Assembly (NCBI GenBank): GCA_049294075.1
Contig: JBAQCK010000138.1
Coordinates: 38,361-102,360 of the forward strand
DNA: 64,000 bases
Direction of reading: 5' to 3'
DNA from: Bacteroidales bacterium
GTDB lineage: Bacteria > Bacteroidota > Bacteroidia > Bacteroidales > VadinHA17
A program made the translations under genes and the position numbers. The notes beneath the pieces were generated by a model. It searched no databases and had not been told where the DNA came from. It saw only the letters and a program-made list of their open reading frames with translations. Below are positions 19,283-41,907 of this stretch, piece after piece. Within the stretch, counting starts at the first letter, position 1; every line of letters begins with the position of its first letter.

Positions 19283-20230
19283 TCAAACCAGGATCTTTGT
19301 AGTAAGGTTGGTGATGCTTTTCCGGATGTCAAGGAACATATCGCCGTCCCTGCTGTCATCCTGCTCGACGATCATGTACTTCATCCCTGCCACGTCTTTC
19401 GCTGCAATGATCTCCTTGAAATTGACTACACCTTCTCCGACCGGTGCGACGTTATCCTTTACAACATCAAAGTAAGGAGGAAGCTGCTGATAACCGTCTT
19501 TCAGGTGGTAAATAGGGAATCTTCCGGGATATTTGTTGAAGATATCCACCGGATTATGACCGGCCTGTGTTACCCAGAACATATCCATCTCCATAATCAC
19601 CAGATCCTTATCCAGTTCAGCGAGCATCACATCGAAATAGGGGACTTTTCCCTCCACTGTTGCAAACTCAAAATTGTGGTTATGATAACCGAACTGCAGT
19701 CCGAATTCCTTCATTACCTTTCCAATTTCATTCCAGTTTGCGGCCATTTTCTGGTAAGTGGCTATTGAGTTTCGCATCTCCTCAACTATCCATGGCTGGA
19801 TGCAGTATTTGGCTCCGATAATGGCATGATCCTCAGCCATCTTTCTGGCACTATCGAGAGTAACGCCTGCTCCCTCAACCTGGGTGTGGCTGCTTAAAAT
19901 CTCCATTCCAAGATCATTCACAAGTTTCTTAAAGTCGGCCGGTGCATAGCCATAAAACTTGCCATCGACATAATCAGCAAGCTCTACATACTTGTAACCA
20001 AGGTCGGAAACCTTTTTCAGTGAACCAGGAGCATCTGTTGCCATCGCATCCCTGATTGTATAAAGCTGAAGGCCGAGATTAAATGATTTCGGATCGACGA
20101 TTACAGGTTCCGGAGCCTTCGCGGCCTTATTCGAGGCGTTCCGGCAGGAAGACTGTGATAAAACGAAAGCTCCGAGAGCGCCAGCAGCTGACACTCGCAG
20201 AAATTCTCTCCTGGATTGTGATTTTTTCAT
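19283..20230 (-). CDS. TAT-exported sugar phosphate isomerase/epimerase (xylose-isomerase-like TIM barrel)
   Basis: Twin-arginine signal SRREFLRVSAAGALGA. The TIM-barrel family assignment comes from overall pattern only. Confidence 0.65.
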   Translation of the reverse strand: MKKSQSRREFLRVSAAGALGAFVLSQSSCRNASNKAAKAPEPVIVDPKSFNLGLQLYTIRDAMATDAPGSLKKVSDLGYKYVELADYVDGKFYGYAPADFKKLVNDLGMEILSSHTQVEGAGVTLDSARKMAEDHAIIGAKYCIQPWIVEEMRNSIATYQKMAANWNEIGKVMKEFGLQFGYHNHNFEFATVEGKVPYFDVMLAELDKDLVIMEMDMFWVTQAGHNPVDIFNKYPGRFPIYHLKDGYQQLPPYFDVVKDNVAPVGEGVVNFKEIIAAKDVAGMKYMIVEQDDSRDGDMFLDIRKSITNLTTKILV

Positions 20231-20325
20231 CAGTATATAATTTTGATTTTAAAGGTCTGATGGAACCCACATGTTTGAAAATTATATACATACGTGTTTG
20301 TGTATTTGATACATGTGGGTTTCAT
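20224..20325 (+). repeat. conserved ~100-bp intergenic element, copy A
   Basis: Aligns by eye with 30794-30900 and 41803-41907. Hairpin arms are 20262-20273 (GGAACCCACATG) and 20312-20323 (CATGTGGGTTTC). Confidence 0.8.
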
Positions 20326-20594: not shown

Positions 20595-21772
20595 ATGTCC
20601 GGAATTATCATTATCATGACCATCATTCTTGTTTCATCGTGCGGTTCGAGGCCGTTATCGGAGAAAAAGACTGATACAGAGTTGAAGTGGTCGGTCAGGA
20701 TGGCCAACACGGTCATCAACAGGTCTGACAGTCTTGTCTTTTATGTCGACCGGCACCCAAATGGGCATATGATGTTGCTTTCCTGTGAATGGGCATGGAC
20801 CGTCTGGGAGCTGTTGATCCCTTATACTCCGGATACATGGAGGAATGGGTAGATTATTTCGTACAGCCAGATGGCAGTGTTCTTGATTACAGAAAAGAGG
20901 AATATAACCTTGACAGGATTTTTCCCGGCAGGAACGTGCTGACGGTTTACAGGAGGAGAGGGGATGCAAAATACAAGACTGCCCTGGACGGATTAATTGA
21001 CCAGCTCCGCGATCATCCTAAAACCCAATCGGGCGGTTACTGGCATAAAAAGATATACCCGTGGCAGATGTGGCTTGACGGGATCTTCATGGGATCGACC
21101 TACATGGTTCAGTATGCTTCCGAATTCGGCGCACCGGAATGGTTTGACGTTGCCGTGAACCAGGCAGTGATGGCTTATGAGAAGACACTCGATAAGGAAT
21201 CGGGATTACTTATGCATGCCTGGGATGAAAGCAGGCAGCAGAAGTGGTGCGATCCTGAAACAGGCCGTTCTCATTATCCATGGAGTCGTGCAACTGGCTG
21301 GTATCTGATGGCCCTTACGGATATCCTGGAATATCTTCCTGAGGATCATCCCGGAAGGGTCGATTTGCTCAGGATATTACAATCCACGTCTGAAGCTCTC
21401 CTGAAAGTGCAGGATCCAAATACCGGGCTCTGGTTCCAGGTGCTGAATCAGGGCGGGAGGGATGGTAATTATGTTGAAGGATCAGGTTCGGCAATGTTTG
21501 CTTATGTTTTTGCCCGTGAGGCAAACAAGGGATTTCTCGATAAGACTTACCTGGAAATCGCTGAAAAGGCATTTGACAACATAGTAAAGGAACTAATTAC
21601 AATTGATGAAAGAGGCAACCTGACAATGCATAATATAGTCGGAGGATGCGGTCTGGGAGGGAATCCATACCGTGATGGTTCATACGAATACTACGTCAAC
21701 GAAAAACGTGTTGACAATGACACTAAAGGTGTGGCTCCCTTTATTCTGGCAGCGCTGGAACTGGATAAATAA
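20595..21772 (+). pseudogene. GH105/GH88-type unsaturated (rhamno)galacturonyl/glucuronyl hydrolase, disrupted
   Basis: Lipoprotein signal plus N-terminus lie in frame 0. The GH-like sequence PKWAYDVAFL continues in another frame after the A3 run at 20759-20761, then meets an in-frame TGA at 20786-20788. The remaining 327 aa are intact (YWHKKIYPWQMWLDGIFMG...). Confidence 0.6.
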
Positions 21773-29279: not shown

Positions 29280-30677
29280 TTAGAATCCGAAGTATTCTTT
29301 CGCGTTTTTGTAGGATACACCTTCGATCAGAGGTCTTACAAGTTCATCCTCATCGGGTATGTTTCCTTTTTCTATTTCAGAACCGATATAATTACACAAT
29401 ATTCTCCTGAAGTACTCATGACGGGGGAATGAGAGGAAACTTCGGGAGTCGGTGACCATCCCCACGAATCTTCTCAGCAGTCCGAGAGAAGCGAGGTCCC
29501 TGAAGTGTTTTTCCATCCCGTTTTTCTGATCGAGGAACCACCATGCTGCACCGTACTGCACTTTAACTGCCCCGGAGCCGTCGTTGAAGTTGCCTGCCAT
29601 AGTGATCATTAGTTCGTTATCGGCAGGATTAAGATTGTAAAGGATTGTTTTTGCAAGCTGATCCGAATCATCGAGCGCGTCAATGAATCTTGACATTCTG
29701 AAAGCATCCTGAGGTACACCGATGGAATCCCATCCCGTATCGGGACCCATTTTCCTGAACATTCTGGAATTGTTGTTTCTGAGCGCGCCCACATGGAACT
29801 GCTGGGTCCATCCTCTTTTGTGATTCATCCTGCAGAGCTCGAGCATTATGGCCATCCTGTATTTTTCAGTTTCATCGGCAGAAACCTGCTGTCCCTTTAA
29901 AATTGACCTGAATATAAGGTCCGCTTCCCTCTCGCTGCACGGCGAAAAGAAAAACCTCTCGGATCCGTGGTCGGAGAGGCGGCATCCCATTTCATGGAAA
30001 AAGGCATGCCTTTCGTCCAAAGCCTCTGTCAGGGCTTCAAAACTTCCGATTTCCTTTCCGGTGACTTTTTCAAGCTTCAGTATATACTCTCTGAATTTAT
30101 CCGGGTCATCAGTTTTGATTACATTGTCGGGACGGAAGGCCGGAAGCATCTTAATCTCACTGCTGCCTTTCATCTGAGTGTGGAATTCGAGGGTGTCAGC
30201 CGGATCGTCAGTAGTGCAGACAACTTCCACATTATTCTTTCTGAGTAGCGACCTGATGCTGAATTCCCTTGTTCTGAGCATTGATGATGCTCTTTCATAG
30301 ATCTCAGCGGCATTGGATGGTGAAAGGAGGTCATAAATCCCGAAATACCTTGCCAGTTCAAGATGAGCCCAGTGGTACAAGGGATTTCCAATTGTTGCAG
30401 GCAGGGTCTCAGCCCACTTCTCAAATTTCTCTTTCGGAGGGGCTTCGCCTGTACAGTAAAGCTCGTTAATACCATTCATTCTCATGGCCCTCCATTTGTA
30501 ATGATCGCCGTCGAGCCATGCCTGGCCTATATTATCAAAGCAGATGTCACCGGCAATCATCGAGGGCGATAAGTGGCAATGAAAATCGATGATTGGCTGA
30601 TTTTCTGAAAATTCATGATAAAGTCTCCTTGCTGTCTTTGTTTCCAGCAGAAAGTCGTCGTTTATAAATCTTTTCAT
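29280..30677 (-). CDS. uxaC: glucuronate isomerase
   Basis: MKRFINDDFLL...IIDFHCHL N-terminus. Full length at 465 aa. Confidence 0.92.
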   Translation of the reverse strand: MKRFINDDFLLETKTARRLYHEFSENQPIIDFHCHLSPSMIAGDICFDNIGQAWLDGDHYKWRAMRMNGINELYCTGEAPPKEKFEKWAETLPATIGNPLYHWAHLELARYFGIYDLLSPSNAAEIYERASSMLRTREFSIRSLLRKNNVEVVCTTDDPADTLEFHTQMKGSSEIKMLPAFRPDNVIKTDDPDKFREYILKLEKVTGKEIGSFEALTEALDERHAFFHEMGCRLSDHGSERFFFSPCSEREADLIFRSILKGQQVSADETEKYRMAIMLELCRMNHKRGWTQQFHVGALRNNNSRMFRKMGPDTGWDSIGVPQDAFRMSRFIDALDDSDQLAKTILYNLNPADNELMITMAGNFNDGSGAVKVQYGAAWWFLDQKNGMEKHFRDLASLGLLRRFVGMVTDSRSFLSFPRHEYFRRILCNYIGSEIEKGNIPDEDELVRPLIEGVSYKNAKEYFGF

Positions 30678-30793
30678 CCCTGGTTGTATATAATTTGATT
30701 ATTCTTGATCAGCTGCTTTAAGCGAAAAAATGAGTTATTAAAAATAGCAAATAAAATCAGAGGTAAGGACAAAAAGCCGTTAAGGTAAGTTAA

Positions 30794-30900
30794 TTTTCAT
30801 CATAATCTAATTTTGATTTTAGCGGTATGATGGAACCGCGCATGATTGAAAATTATTTTCATTAAGTGTTTGTGTTTGAAATCAATCATGTGGGTTTCAT
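30794..30900 (+). repeat. conserved ~100-bp intergenic element, copy B
   Basis: Hairpin arms are 30832-30849 and 30882-30898. The flanking and loop blocks AATTTTGATTTTA and GTGTTTGTGT are shared with copy A. Confidence 0.8.
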
Positions 30901-31034
30901 ATATTTCCGGTGAGGAGCCAGGGGCATCCCGGGTAACAAATATGGATTTTCTCTTCATCATTTCAGCCAAAGATTGTATTTTTAACATTCCAAATCAGGT
31001 CTTGTCATTTTTAACAATCAAAATTTATTGAATT

Positions 31035-31871
31035 ATGAAGATTGAGTTGAGATATGCAGTGCATCCTGACGATTTCAGGTCGTATGATACCGGAAAACTG
31101 AGGAAGGAATTCCTGATAGAGAAGGTGTTTGTTCAGGATGAGATAATGCTTGTTTATTCAATGTACGACAGGTATATCGTGGGTGGCGCCATGCCTGTTG
31201 ACAAAGTCCTTAAGCTTGAGTCGGCTGATGATCTTAAGGCTTCTTATTTTCTCGAAAGAAGAGAAATGGGAATGATCAATGTCGGTGGTGAAGCCGAAAT
31301 TGAAGCAGGCGGGGTGACATATAATGTCGGGTTCAAGGAGGCGCTATACCTTGGCAGGGAGACAAATGACGTGTTTTTCAGATCGAAGGATGCCTCAAAT
31401 CCGGCCAGATTGTATATTAACTCGGCTCCGGCCCACCATAAGTATCCTTCAAGAAAAGTCACCCTGAGGGATGCAGAGATTGTCACACAAGGATCCGCCG
31501 AAGCCTCCAACCACCGGACGATCAACAAGCTTATTGTGAACAGCGTCCTTCCGACATGCCAGCTTCAGATGGGGATGACGGAACTTAAGACAGGCAGTGT
31601 ATGGAACACCATGCCTGTTCATACCCATAACCGCAGGATGGAAGCATACTTTTACTTTGAACTCCCGGATAAGCAGGGTATTTGCCATTTCCTGGGGGAC
31701 CCTGACGAAACCCGTCATATCTGGATGAAAAATGAGCAGGCGGTGCTGTCACCTTCGTGGAGCATTCATAGCGCCTCAGGCACATCCAGTTATACATTCA
31801 TCTGGGGAATGGCCGGTGAGAACCTTGATTACAGCGATATGGATGTCCGACATCCCGATACTCTTAAATAA
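31035..31871 (+). CDS. kduI: 5-dehydro-4-deoxy-D-glucuronate isomerase
   Basis: 278 aa, MKIELRYAVHPDD..., cupin His cluster (MPVHTHNRRMEAYFYF). Confidence 0.9.
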   Translation: MKIELRYAVHPDDFRSYDTGKLRKEFLIEKVFVQDEIMLVYSMYDRYIVGGAMPVDKVLKLESADDLKASYFLERREMGMINVGGEAEIEAGGVTYNVGFKEALYLGRETNDVFFRSKDASNPARLYINSAPAHHKYPSRKVTLRDAEIVTQGSAEASNHRTINKLIVNSVLPTCQLQMGMTELKTGSVWNTMPVHTHNRRMEAYFYFELPDKQGICHFLGDPDETRHIWMKNEQAVLSPSWSIHSASGTSSYTFIWGMAGENLDYSDMDVRHPDTLK

Positions 31872-36150: not shown

Positions 36151-36582
36151 CTAATCGGCAGTGTAGTTAAGCCGGAGGTCAAGCTCGCGGTCGTAAACGT
36201 ACCAGCAGGCATCCTCGCACTGCGTCCTGGTAAATTTTGTCCTTGGAATTGCTGAGTCGACTGCTGTATAGGTTTTGCCATTTCTCTCATAACTGGCAGT
36301 CGCCGTGTATTTCTTATTTAGCCTGACATCTAACCTGTAGATGTCAGAGGGGGGATTTACCGTGTTCAGAAGCACCCCGTCCTCCAGTTCGCCCTCATAC
36401 ACATTAATTGTCGCAGCCGGATTGTTCTCCGAGAATTTGATAAGCAGATAGTCGCTTGCAGGCTCATTGGAAGTGCAATCGCCGCAATCGGCAATCCATC
36501 CCTGTTCCTCGCACGAGAACGCAGCGGCGAGAACCAGGAAAAGAAAGATACCAAGGCAATGTTTCGTGATTTTCGCTACCAT
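36151..36582 (-). CDS. hypothetical lipoprotein
   Basis: Signal peptide plus lipobox (AAAFSC). 143 aa. Confidence 0.6.
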   Translation of the reverse strand: MVAKITKHCLGIFLFLVLAAAFSCEEQGWIADCGDCTSNEPASDYLLIKFSENNPAATINVYEGELEDGVLLNTVNPPSDIYRLDVRLNKKYTATASYERNGKTYTAVDSAIPRTKFTRTQCEDACWYVYDRELDLRLNYTAD

Positions 36583-38015
36583 TCTATTGTCTTTTCATGT
36601 TTTTTGACCCGGCTCAGTCTGTAGCTGTAAGTGAAGCCCAGCCTGCCCCAGAGAGGACCAATTTTATAGAATTCGGTTTTCAGATATTCAATACCTGCAC
36701 TCACAGCCAGGTTTGACCTTTCGAACTTTATTCCTGCGGCCGGCATTATTCTTGCCTTACTTTCGGGCCGGGCAATCGTTCCATTGAAAGCGGGGCCGAA
36801 GTTATATCCTGCCGACAGGGAAGCAGAGGCCATAATGGTGAATCCCGAAGGTCTCTCCAGAAGTGTGAAGTCCTTGAATAGTCCTGCGTAAGCCAGGGAG
36901 CTTTTATCGAGATACTGGTAAAACTCATTGTCGCCGGTTTCCTTCATGACTCTTGTTCTGAAGGGTTTTGTATCAAATCCGGCCATGAATCCCGCATTGA
37001 GGAGCGGTTCTTTGAATGAAAGCATCAGTCCGGCCAGAAAATCCCTGTTGTTGGCCCTGGCATTGGCCGACAGGGAGATCACATCAATTCTTAATCCCGG
37101 TTTGCCCTTTATATTATATTTTTCAAGAAGTGAAGTGATATCCTTTCTTCCGAAAGCTGCTGCCACGGTATAGGGATTGACTCCTCCCTTTTCCGGATCA
37201 TTCCACAGGTCTCCTTTTTTTAGAAGAAGCTCTGCTGCCGGGATATGGTTCGACTGGATAGCCAGGGCCAGTGCATTGTAATTATAGATGTTCTTTTCAT
37301 ACAGGTCGACACCCTCCTTGAGCAGCAGGCTCATTATCGCGGTGTCACCTTTCTGGGCTGCTATAAGAAATGGGGTGAAGCCTTCCTGGTCCCTTGCTTC
37401 CAGATTGGCACCGTTTTGAAAGAGCAAATCGGTTACATCGGCATATCCCGAAAGGATAGAGGCCATCAGCGGGGTTGTTCCGTCATCTGACTTCAGGTTG
37501 CAGTCTGCATCATAATAAAGCAGGAGGTCAGTCATCAGCATATCACCGTTCACCGCGGCGTAATGTAACGGAGTGGCGCCGTGATTGTCAGGAAGATCAA
37601 TATCTGCCCCGCCCCTGATGAGAGTCTCTGCAATTTCAGTGTTCATATTTTTGACTGCAATCAGGAGAGCAGTCTCATGCCCGGCAGTTTTCTTATCTAT
37701 ATTTGGATTCCAGGCCAGCAATGCTTCCACCGCAGAATGCCTGTTATTTGCAACGGCAAAGATCAGGGGCGTTGCTCCCTCGTAAGTCTCCGCGTCTATT
37801 TCGGCTCCTTTTGAAAGAAGTCTGTTGACTTCGGTGTGGAGCCCCTTTGATGATGCAATCATGAGATTGTATTCAAGCGCGCCCTCGGTGTCCATCGGTA
37901 TGTAATCGAGAGTGTCAAGAATTGTAATAACCTGTCCTGATAATCTTTGCAGCGGGAAGGTCAGATTAGCGAGGATCAGCGTTATGGCAAATATGCTACT
38001 TCGTGTTAATAACAT
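36576..38015 (-). CDS. exported ankyrin-repeat protein with C-terminal beta-barrel-like domain
   Basis: Signal peptide. About 8 ANK units (G.TPL..A......V..LL..GA). The last ~170 aa show alternating-hydrophobic strands and end in ...GFTYSYRL...IEW. Confidence 0.7.
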   Translation of the reverse strand: MLLTRSSIFAITLILANLTFPLQRLSGQVITILDTLDYIPMDTEGALEYNLMIASSKGLHTEVNRLLSKGAEIDAETYEGATPLIFAVANNRHSAVEALLAWNPNIDKKTAGHETALLIAVKNMNTEIAETLIRGGADIDLPDNHGATPLHYAAVNGDMLMTDLLLYYDADCNLKSDDGTTPLMASILSGYADVTDLLFQNGANLEARDQEGFTPFLIAAQKGDTAIMSLLLKEGVDLYEKNIYNYNALALAIQSNHIPAAELLLKKGDLWNDPEKGGVNPYTVAAAFGRKDITSLLEKYNIKGKPGLRIDVISLSANARANNRDFLAGLMLSFKEPLLNAGFMAGFDTKPFRTRVMKETGDNEFYQYLDKSSLAYAGLFKDFTLLERPSGFTIMASASLSAGYNFGPAFNGTIARPESKARIMPAAGIKFERSNLAVSAGIEYLKTEFYKIGPLWGRLGFTYSYRLSRVKKHEKTIEW

Positions 38016-41802: not shown

Positions 41803-41907
41803 TTTCATCATAATAAAATTTTGAATTTAATGGAAAGATGGAACCGCACATGATGATAATTCTGTTCATCAGGTGTTTATGTTTAAAATCAATCATGTGG
41901 GTTTCAA
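41803..41907 (+). repeat. conserved ~100-bp intergenic element, copy C
   Basis: Hairpin arms are 41840-41854 and 41892-41905. The right half is near-identical to copy B (AATCAATCATGTGGGTTTCA). Confidence 0.8.

Follow-up and report, generated by a model that had tools for sequence, protein, structure and literature searches.

In insertion sequences of the IS200/IS605 group, short guide sequences sit 5′ of the hairpin foot (PMC3201880, PMC3597680), and in the members IS608 and ISDra2 transposition targets the lagging strand (PMC5027513). [quoted passage not shown] Multicopy families of small RNAs are known in Bacteroides as well (PMC11697453). These are the described systems against which we compare a small repeat found in a stretch of Bacteroidales DNA of 64 kb, hereafter the window.

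A first-pass annotation of the window had singled out a hairpin between uxaC and kduI, interpreting it as a control element of the hexuronate operons. Our comparison with related genomes places this hairpin, here called copy B, in a new family of small mobile repeats that target a hexamer. In the reading we favor, to which we assign a probability of about 0.85, copy B belongs to a family of small (87 to 103 bp), non-coding, non-autonomous mobile repeats present in many uncultured Bacteroidales, and is a passenger at this locus, not a hexuronate regulator.

Results

Copy B folds into two stem-loops and carries a hexamer at each end

Copy B, including both flanking hexamers, occupies positions 30795-30900 on the plus strand and has a unit period of 100 bp. 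It lies between uxaC (29280-30677, minus strand) and kduI (31035-31871, plus strand), both assigned from Pfam, at 117 nt from the uxaC ATG and 134 nt from the kduI ATG, exactly as first reported. The features of the region are as follows, L208, L209 and L210 being relatives with 90-92% identical KduI that are described in the next section.

30732..30755, minus strand: uxaC-side block GAGTTATTAAAAATAGCAAATAAA, promoter/operator-like, outside the element, invariant in the window, L208, L209 and L210
30795..30900, plus strand: copy B, whole element, of the subfamily with the ATTGA/TCAAT stem extension; 100 bp extra relative to L208 in the empty-site alignment
30795..30800, plus strand: proximal (left) hexamer TTTCAT; L208 has a single TTTCAC at the same position
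30801..30900, plus strand: inserted unit proper, CATAATCT...CATGTGGGTTTCAT, with its own terminal TTTCAT at 30895-30900
30795..30835, plus strand: stem-loop P1, in which TTTCATCAT (30795-30803) pairs with ATGATGGAA (30827-30835) around an A/T-rich loop
30830..30900, plus strand: stem-loop P2, with a 5′ arm at 30830-30849, a bulged G30838 and a 3′ arm at 30882-30900
30886..30900, minus strand: distal ATGAAA followed by CCCACATGA, a 4-codon ORF (MKPT*) typical of the subfamily of copies B and C
30970..30986, plus strand: kduI-side block AAGATTGTATTTTTA(AC), resembling TAnnTTTG, outside the element, identical in L208

The long stem, initially described as about 20 bp with one bulged G, is borne out: the arms ATGGAACCGCGCATGATTGA (30830-30849) and TCAATCATGTGGGTTTCAT (30882-30900) form 19 pairs, including two G-T wobbles, and leave G30838 as the bulge; a ViennaRNA fold reproduces this stem. 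Its lengthening, given before as GATTGA/TCAATC, is also real in the form of an ATTGA/TCAAT extension which, together with the bulged base, marks one subfamily that includes copies B and C and is seen in many genomes. The loop of P2 holds the conserved sequence GTGTTTGTG at 30866-30874. Two features had gone unmentioned, namely the second stem, P1 (30795-30803 with 30827-30835), and the presence of TTTCAT at both ends of the unit. The internal ATGGAA at 30830-30835 can pair with either flanking TTTCAT, so that P1 and P2 cannot form their outer parts at the same time. Fold z-scores for copy B are -2.5 on the plus strand and -3.7 on the minus strand, the corresponding energies being -34.4 and -24.1 kcal/mol. 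On the minus strand, a mini-ORF of six codons (ATGAAAATTAACTTACCTTAA, MKINLP*, 30800-30780) is present as noted before, and the likeness of its ATGAAA end to real start codons holds across the family, as detailed below.

Copies A and B had been regarded as the same element, the former placed at 20224-20325. Their identity of 81% over aligned stretches, some flank included, upholds this view, with copy A set at 20225-20325. An nhmmer profile finds exactly three copies within the 64 kb, at E-values of 1e-17 to 5e-27, and a 30-nt core pattern matches the window twice where 0.00 matches are expected; the repeats are not a product of chance. The third copy, which the first-pass annotation had missed, came from a repeat search.

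20225..20325, plus strand: copy A, of the 95-bp class; its proximal hexamer is the start codon of an AP_endonuc_2 TIM-barrel gene (19283-20230, minus strand)
41803..41907, plus strand: copy C, of the B subfamily, with TTTCAA as right hexamer; between a CarbopepD_reg-like gene (minus strand) and iorA (plus strand)

The host gene of copy A encodes a sugar-phosphate isomerase-like TIM-barrel protein (AP_endonuc_2). In this copy, the distal ATGAAA opens an ORF of 31 codons whose TGA stop overlaps the real start (TGATG). Given a conserved promoter-like box ~56 nt upstream of the distal hexamer, copy A is predicted to be transcribed inside the mRNA of its host gene. Copy C has the CarbopepD_reg-like gene on one side and iorAB on the other.

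Empty sites in close relatives mark all three copies as insertions

The closest relative with uxaC<->kduI-kduD synteny is L208 (GCA_003486745.1), whose KduI is 92% identical, whose gene layout is the same (SDR-uxaC <-> kduI-SDR) and which can be aligned through the entire spacer. At the site of copy B, the window reads ...GTTAAT TTTCAT[94 bp]TTTCAT ATATTTCC and L208 reads ...GTTAAT TTTCAC ATATTTCC. In full, the site is ...GCCGTTAAGGTAAGTTAAT TTTCAT [CATAATC...GGG TTTCAT] ATATTTCCGGTGAG in the window and ...GCCGTTAAGGTATGTTAAT TTTCAC ATATTTCCGATGAG in L208. The uxaC-kduI spacer measures 357 nt in the window versus 257 nt in L208, a difference of exactly 100 bp. As L208 has a single TTTCAC at this position, and as the left hexamer tracks the target throughout the family, we infer that the left TTTCAT of copy B (30795-30800) derives from the target.

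Copy B is also absent from L209 to L214, with 90% identical KduI, and from L114, L115, L119, L122 and L127, with 73-82% identical KduI; the spacers of this last group are too diverged for the empty site to be placed, the MAFFT alignment being misleading, and the relatives at 90-92% were used for that purpose. The site of copy A is empty in L198 (94% amino acid identity) and L200 (90%), where the 5′ region TTTAAGAATTGTATTATTTTTG...TTAGAA leads straight into a single ATGAAA. In L204 (88%), the very start codon used by copy A is occupied by a member of another subfamily, which has a GC-rich nested hairpin. As for copy C, its site is empty in Bacteroidales UBA6117 (L215; neighboring protein 96% identical), which reads ...AAATTTCAT|TTTTGAAC, and filled in an 87% relative (L216). 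A site filled in the window and the 87% relative and empty in the 96% relative would need a clean loss or an allele replacement. All three copies of the window thus have precise filled/empty pairs and, by these alignments, the uxaC-kduI hairpin is an insertion.

Further copies occur at a related locus. In the metagenome contig L123 (KduI 74% identical), two tandem copies lie on the ATG of kduI in the orientation opposite to copy B, and one more precedes the next gene. Look-ups by exact protein match with the KduI and AP_endonuc_2 genes of the window yielded only contigs ending within the repeat; copies A and B are thus points at which short-read assemblies of this organism break.

The family is dispersed, and both of its stems covary

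A scan with an exact two-block pattern, using one genome per species, placed the family at more than 113 loci among the matches listed, in dozens of metagenome-assembled genomes (MAGs) and often with many copies per genome; the carriers among these matches are Bacteroidales, Rikenellaceae, Paludibacteraceae and Lentimicrobium MAGs. The unit period ranges from 87 to 103 bp, with modes at 95, 98 and 100-102. In an alignment of 120 distinct copies, conservation sets in sharply at TTTCATC and ends as sharply at GGGTTTCAT. The unit consensus, CA(G/T)(T/A)AT...CATGTGGGTTTCAT, lies directly 3′ of (T/A)TTCAT in the same orientation throughout, and the unit carries a terminal TTTCAT of its own, which leaves a hexamer on both sides. 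Terminal inverted repeats are absent from the alignment of these 120 copies, the termini CAKWATATAA... and ...ACATGTGGG(TTTCAT) being unrelated.

Compensatory variants of P1 include CATCAG/CTGATG, CATCAT/ATGATG, CATCCG/CGGATG and CATCTG/CAGATG. At the level of single columns (alignment A3), pair 22-49 of P1 is AU in 90, CG in 17 and UA in 5 copies, and pair 23-48 is UA in 53 and GC in 52; in P2, pair 66-114 is UA in 62 and AU in 35, and the distal part varies, e.g., ATTGA/TCAAT versus TTTT/AAAA. Covariation scores 0.142, compared with 0.051 in shuffles, none of 500 shuffles scoring as high, and slid controls reach 0.011-0.027. G-T mismatches outnumber A-C mismatches 30 to 20 when only unforced stem columns are counted, one conserved wobble having been imposed by the search pattern. 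The hexamer and its internal complement do not covary in the L123 variant, where ATGGAG occurs with GTTCAT.

Nearly a fifth of the copies (23/119) run directly into another copy with one hexamer in common. The neighbors in such arrays often belong to different subfamilies (L031, L068), a mixture better explained by repeated insertion than by duplication in place. Over the 64 kb, Rfam gave no hits at gathering thresholds, and for 30700-31040 at E ≤ 10 it returned chance-level hits alone (E > 1.9). A literature search for the core sequences found no paper containing them and no description of the family sequence. The plasmid and phage collections yielded no match other than two IMG/VR contigs with the pattern.

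The target hexamer usually doubles as a start codon

The left hexamer is TTTCAT in 108 and ATTCAT in 7 of 119 copies, and beyond it there is a weak A/T preference only. In 107 of 125 full-length copies the left and right hexamers are identical. Where they differ, the right hexamer tracks the lineage of the element and the left one tracks the target: the left is the gene's own ATGAAT or ATGAAA, and the right is ATGAAC (L123) or TTTCAA (copy C). In L123, that is, the distal hexamer is ATGAAC, yet the proximal one is the gene's own ATGAAA; seven copies have ATTCAT on the left with TTTCAT or TTTCAC on the right. Judged by this family-wide pattern, the distal hexamer belongs to the element, and the unit is probably best described as CAKWAT...GGGTTTCAT placed 3′ of (T/A)TTCAT, not as the product of a staggered-cut duplication.

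Read on the other strand, the hexamer is ATGAAA, the commonest start context in these genomes, so that most surviving insertions coincide exactly with a start codon. Of 119 copies, 83 have a proximal hexamer that serves on the opposite strand as the ATGAAA (or ATGAAT) start of a long ORF; these host ORFs are functionally unrelated, and many encode signal peptides. In another 35, B and C among them, the hexamer opens only a short ORF of 2 to 43 codons. Among unoccupied ATGAAA sites outside genes at the same loci, 22% are predicted starts (95 against 333), and another 977 unoccupied sites lie inside predicted genes. The comparison of occupied with free hexamers at starts (70% versus 22%) indicates that start codons are either preferred or better tolerated, and selection presumably eliminates insertions within genes.

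In 28 of 123 copies, a co-directional ORF of 100 codons or more has its end no farther than 40 nt from the distal hexamer; four of these copies have a TGA inside that hexamer (ATGA overlap) and two a 1-nt overlap. Both types of overlap are typical operon junctions (PMC10666635). With the distal hexamer in the old start position, the upstream stop and the downstream start both survive insertion; in operons, the distal hexamer preserves the overlapping TGA stop of the upstream gene.

Conserved promoter-like blocks lie on either side of copy B

The -7 box of Bacteroidetes promoters has the consensus TAnnTTTG. A kduI promoter had been proposed at 30875-30907, consisting of TTTG, a 21-nt spacer and TATATTTC. 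Both TTTG and a TAnnTTT-like box are indeed there, but the box lacks the final G of TAnnTTTG and the candidate spans the insertion junction, with all but the first base of the putative -7 box of TATATTTC in the flank. Because it straddles the junction, this combination cannot exist in an empty-site relative. A better candidate is the kduI-side block AAGATTGTATTTTTA, which is near-identical in L209 and recognizable in every layout-keeping relative examined. On the uxaC side, a related block, (G/A)AAATAG(C/G)AA, occurs in L114, L119 and L122.

Copy B sits between the two conserved blocks, where L209 shows no conservation of the spacer. We consider these blocks the likely control sequences of uxaC and kduI. 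Copy B probably falls outside both transcripts, adding 100 bp between the divergent promoters, and its presence is probably near-neutral for uxaC-kduI, as far as can be read from the alignments. A regulatory side effect on uxaC or kduI is possible, as is an accidental junction promoter created by the insertion from TTTG, the 21-nt spacer and TATATTTC, although such a promoter is not needed. With respect to a promoter built into the family, 38 of the 120 copies have TAnnTTTG on the plus strand and 2 have it on the gene-sense strand, none with a properly spaced TTTG.

Discussion

In the picture that emerges for this repeat, the unit lies directly 3′ of (T/A)TTCAT in a single orientation. At start codons so occupied, the proximal hexamer stays the start of the gene, and the distal hexamer replaces the old start beside the native 5′ region. 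P1, P2 and the pairing of the internal ATGGAA with either TTTCAT may together form the structure read by the mobilizing enzyme, a recognition logic that would resemble the hairpin-plus-guide scheme of single-strand (HUH-type) transposons. Copies on start codons would be transcribed inside the host mRNA, where the A/U-rich loop of P1 could act as a new translation leader. Copy B, for its part, would have found its TTTCAT between genes, in the middle of the spacer, where conservation is poor, with a promoter-like block on either side.

A search for the mobilizing enzyme in the flanks of the copies (~800 kb in 8-kb pieces, 1018 flanking ORFs clustered) found no recurrent ORF family, the 20 window ORFs scanned include no transposase, and a noisy orphan-end search for a parent insertion sequence (IS) found nothing. 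In JAXGLU010000001.1 (3.36 Mb), a replication-strand bias is absent, with ~5+/5- and 7+/12- in the two GC-skew halves, a comparison of few copies with the origin inferred from local skew alone. We tentatively extend the proposal, in a form that may well prove wrong, to a previously undescribed type of non-autonomous mobile DNA that homes to ATGAAA by means of the ATGGAA inside its two-hairpin fold. By regenerating the hexamer it would let both the start and an overlapping stop survive, and so could spread to start codons and operon junctions across the whole genome without inactivating genes. Its mover might be an HUH-type enzyme without fork bias or an RNA-guided recombinase, of a class not yet linked to such elements.

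Several other readings deserve to be weighed against a mobile passenger. The one we take most seriously, although we hold it unlikely, sees the repeat as a domesticated expression cassette, comparable to Neisseria REP2/CREN with its stem-loops, promoter, ribosome-binding site and ATG (PMC3184786), that supplies a leader, a start codon and a coupled upstream ORF or regulatory hairpin and so places many genes under common control. It would account for the 70% of copies on real start codons, where free hexamers predict 22%, and for the ORF of 31-32 codons (MKPTCIAYTNTYVYNFQTCGFHQTIKIKIIY*) which, in the 95- and 98-bp classes, starts at the distal ATGAAA and ends in a TGA that overlaps the real ATG. 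This element-spanning ORF is open in 27 of 38 copies of 95 bp and in 14 of 15 of 98 bp, compared with 11% in shuffles. It is not enriched at real starts, however (31/41 versus 50/68, Fisher p = 1), for which reason we reject built-in translational coupling as an adaptation, and in the B/C subfamily it stops after four codons (MKPT*). Nor does a cassette fit with the lack of a conserved promoter, the unrelated functions of the adjoining genes or the empty orthologous sites of close relatives, and copy B, lying away from any gene start, falls outside this reading. [quoted passage not shown] Clean filled and empty sites, identical hexamers around 107 of 125 full-length copies, and a size and copy number typical of MITEs (PMC3184786) speak for it. 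The unrelated termini (CAKWAT... and ...CATGTGGG), i.e., the absence of terminal inverted repeats, speak against it, and a right hexamer that follows the element lineage while the left follows the target would be unexpected for a staggered-cut duplication.

We think it very unlikely that the family represents sRNA genes in the manner of FopS/GibS, expressed from the plus strand with TAATTTTG in the P1 loop as -7 box and P2 as a terminator-like end, and acting in trans or antisense to start codons. In copies A and B TAATTTTG does fit TAnnTTTG, UUUCAU follows P2, the fold of copy B is stronger on the plus strand, and multicopy sRNAs have precedents in Bacteroides (PMC11697453). Yet TAnnTTTG is kept in just 38 of 120 copies, none with a properly spaced TTTG, and the 5′ half of the covarying P1 would lie upstream of the putative promoter and hence outside the RNA. 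Rfam, in which FopS is deposited (PMC11697453), gave no hit, and an sRNA leaves the insertion, hexamer and empty-site behavior unexplained. Least probable of all is the view from which the first-pass annotation had started, i.e., a cis-regulatory hairpin (operator, attenuator or promoter) of the divergent uxaC/kduI operons, including the hybrid promoter of TTTG, 21 nt and TATATTTC for kduI. The element does lie where the two operons share their control region, at 117 and 134 nt from the start codons, its hairpin is stable, and insertions can create junction promoters of the kind that TTTG and a TAnnTTT-like box at 21-nt spacing might form. Against this role, it is missing from relatives at 92% and 90% that share the synteny exactly and conserve the rest of the spacer, as well as from more distant ones; unrelated genes flank its sister copies; and the independent copies of L123 lie on the kduI ATG in the opposite orientation. 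The -7 box, moreover, is without the conserved G and nearly all in the flank, and the conserved promoter-like blocks are elsewhere, at 30732-30755 and 30970-30986.

Recognizing the uxaC-kduI hairpin as a passenger removes a false regulatory lead. The family also breaks short-read assemblies of many environmental Bacteroidales and, occupying a large share of start codons, will confuse start calling, the prediction of 5′ UTRs and promoters, and searches for RNA motifs. Translation initiation in Bacteroidetes is not driven by Shine-Dalgarno sequences, and the family offers a natural experiment on how these bacteria tolerate the replacement of a whole leader. If targeting guided by ATGGAA is true, the element would show in compact, natural form how insertion can be guided by sequence to translation starts.

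Comparison with known systems

Integron attC sites have an R''/R' core of RYYYAAC/GTTRRRY and lie 3′ of cassette ORFs in arrays beside intI. We rejected this identity, the core here being TTTCAT/ATGGAA and the copies being dispersed at gene 5′ ends. Like REP/BIME sequences and REPINs, the family consists of short, highly repeated extragenic hairpins that form heterogeneous clusters (PMC3333891), and by analogy with REP/REPIN and RAYT (TnpA-REP) it is probably mobilized in trans by a single-copy enzyme, although the flanks of the copies revealed no RAYT-like gene beside them and no gene flanked by them. REPs, however, are 20-40 nt long, have a conserved GTAG, lie mostly at gene 3′ ends, and show neither a flanking hexamer nor an association with start codons, while the family has units of 87-103 bp, no GTAG and a location at gene 5′ ends. 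A REP/REPIN identity was rejected on size, the missing GTAG and this 5′-end location.

With FopS/GibS, the family shares a multicopy, conserved non-coding sequence in Bacteroidales that is centered on start-codon regions (PMC11697453). FopS has a single-stranded 5′ seed and a terminator, canonical promoters and 12-15 copies per genome; the family differs in architecture, and together with the lack of an Rfam match this led us to reject the identity. [quoted passage not shown] The REP2 (CREN) repeats and similar upstream repeats of Borrelia come closer in that they lack terminal inverted repeats, have two stem-loops, lie upstream of genes and supply an ATG (PMC3184786). This likeness is one of architecture only, between different phyla and without sequence homology; unlike REP2, which brings a promoter and a ribosome-binding site to a co-regulated gene set, the family has no conserved promoter, adjoins unrelated genes and is polymorphic for insertion.

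As a multicopy, non-coding sequence with filled/empty polymorphism between relatives, the family resembles a classical MITE. Its resemblance to derivatives of IS200/IS605 elements (PATEs) extends to the lack of terminal inverted repeats, the orientation-specific insertion 3′ of a short specific sequence and the clean empty sites. It departs from IS200/IS605 in that the flanks of the copies show no TnpA or parent IS, in having one large and one small hairpin instead of imperfect palindromes at the left and right ends, and in a 6-mer target that coincides with start codons. Unlike IS608 and ISDra2 (PMC5027513), it has no replication-strand orientation bias in JAXGLU010000001.1. What it may have in common with these two elements is a set of hairpins near the ends and, in the predicted fold, an internal ATGGAA complementary to the sequences at both putative cleavage positions.

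Copies and conserved blocks within the window

A third copy of the element, which was not part of the first-pass annotation, lies within the window:

41803-41907, copy C, between a CarbopepD_reg-like gene and iorA

Copy C shares its subfamily with copy B, the copy in the uxaC-kduI spacer, and its right hexamer reads TTTCAA. The closest relative, UBA6117 (locus L215), has no element at this site, which is filled, with the identical odd junction, in the more distant relative L216. This distribution implies either that the copy was cleanly lost or that the allele was replaced.

Within the uxaC-kduI spacer itself, two blocks are conserved, both of which are also present in relatives that do not carry the element:

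30732-30755, conserved block GAGTTATTAAAAATAGCAAATAAA
30970-30986, conserved block AAGATTGTATTTTTA

The actual promoters or operators of the two hexuronate operons are more likely to be found in these blocks.

To the right of copy A, the GH88 gene is split:

20595-21772, GH88 gene in two overlapping frames

Residues 5-48 map to 20628-20759 and residues 48-385 to 20756-21769. The 94% relative (amino acid level) encodes a single 385-aa protein. The split reflects either a frameshift, that is, a pseudogene, or an assembly error.

A further gene in the window (36576-38015, minus strand) encodes a 479-aa protein in which ankyrin repeats make up most of the length, with a match to Pfam Ank_2 at E = 4e-48. 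Proteins made largely of such repeats are uncommon in bacteria.

Arrays and nested hairpins at other loci

At three other loci, two to three element copies are arranged head-to-tail, with single TTTCAT hexamers common to adjoining units:

L031, 7010-7228, array
L068, 3603-3821, array
L099, 7460-7676, array

Since the adjoining units are of different subfamilies, such arrays point to repeated insertion beside a resident copy and not to tandem duplication.

Locus L112 (JAXGLU010000001.1, about 276-279 kb) carries a tandem duplication of a lipoprotein gene, both copies of which have a full element on the start codon and a degenerate right-half element directly beyond the stop codon.

Additional mini-hairpins rich in GC, such as CCTGTCTGCCGACAGGCAGG and GAGCTCGCAAGCTC, are present in some copies:

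L033, L076, L081 and L089, copies with mini-hairpins
L204, 2384-2510, likewise
L216, about 2300-2480, likewise

These occupy two fixed sites, namely, the junction of stem-loops P1 and P2 (inside GATG^GAACC) and the P2 loop. They could represent a second mobile hairpin of still smaller size, or an expansion of the structure that the element tolerates.

Among the element-bearing loci, L030 (DIWC01000030.1) and L020/L049 (CAYGFI01) are labeled Peptococcaceae UBA6116 and "uncultured Chitinophaga sp."; because all remaining hosts are Bacteroidales-like, both labels probably arose from errors in binning or naming.
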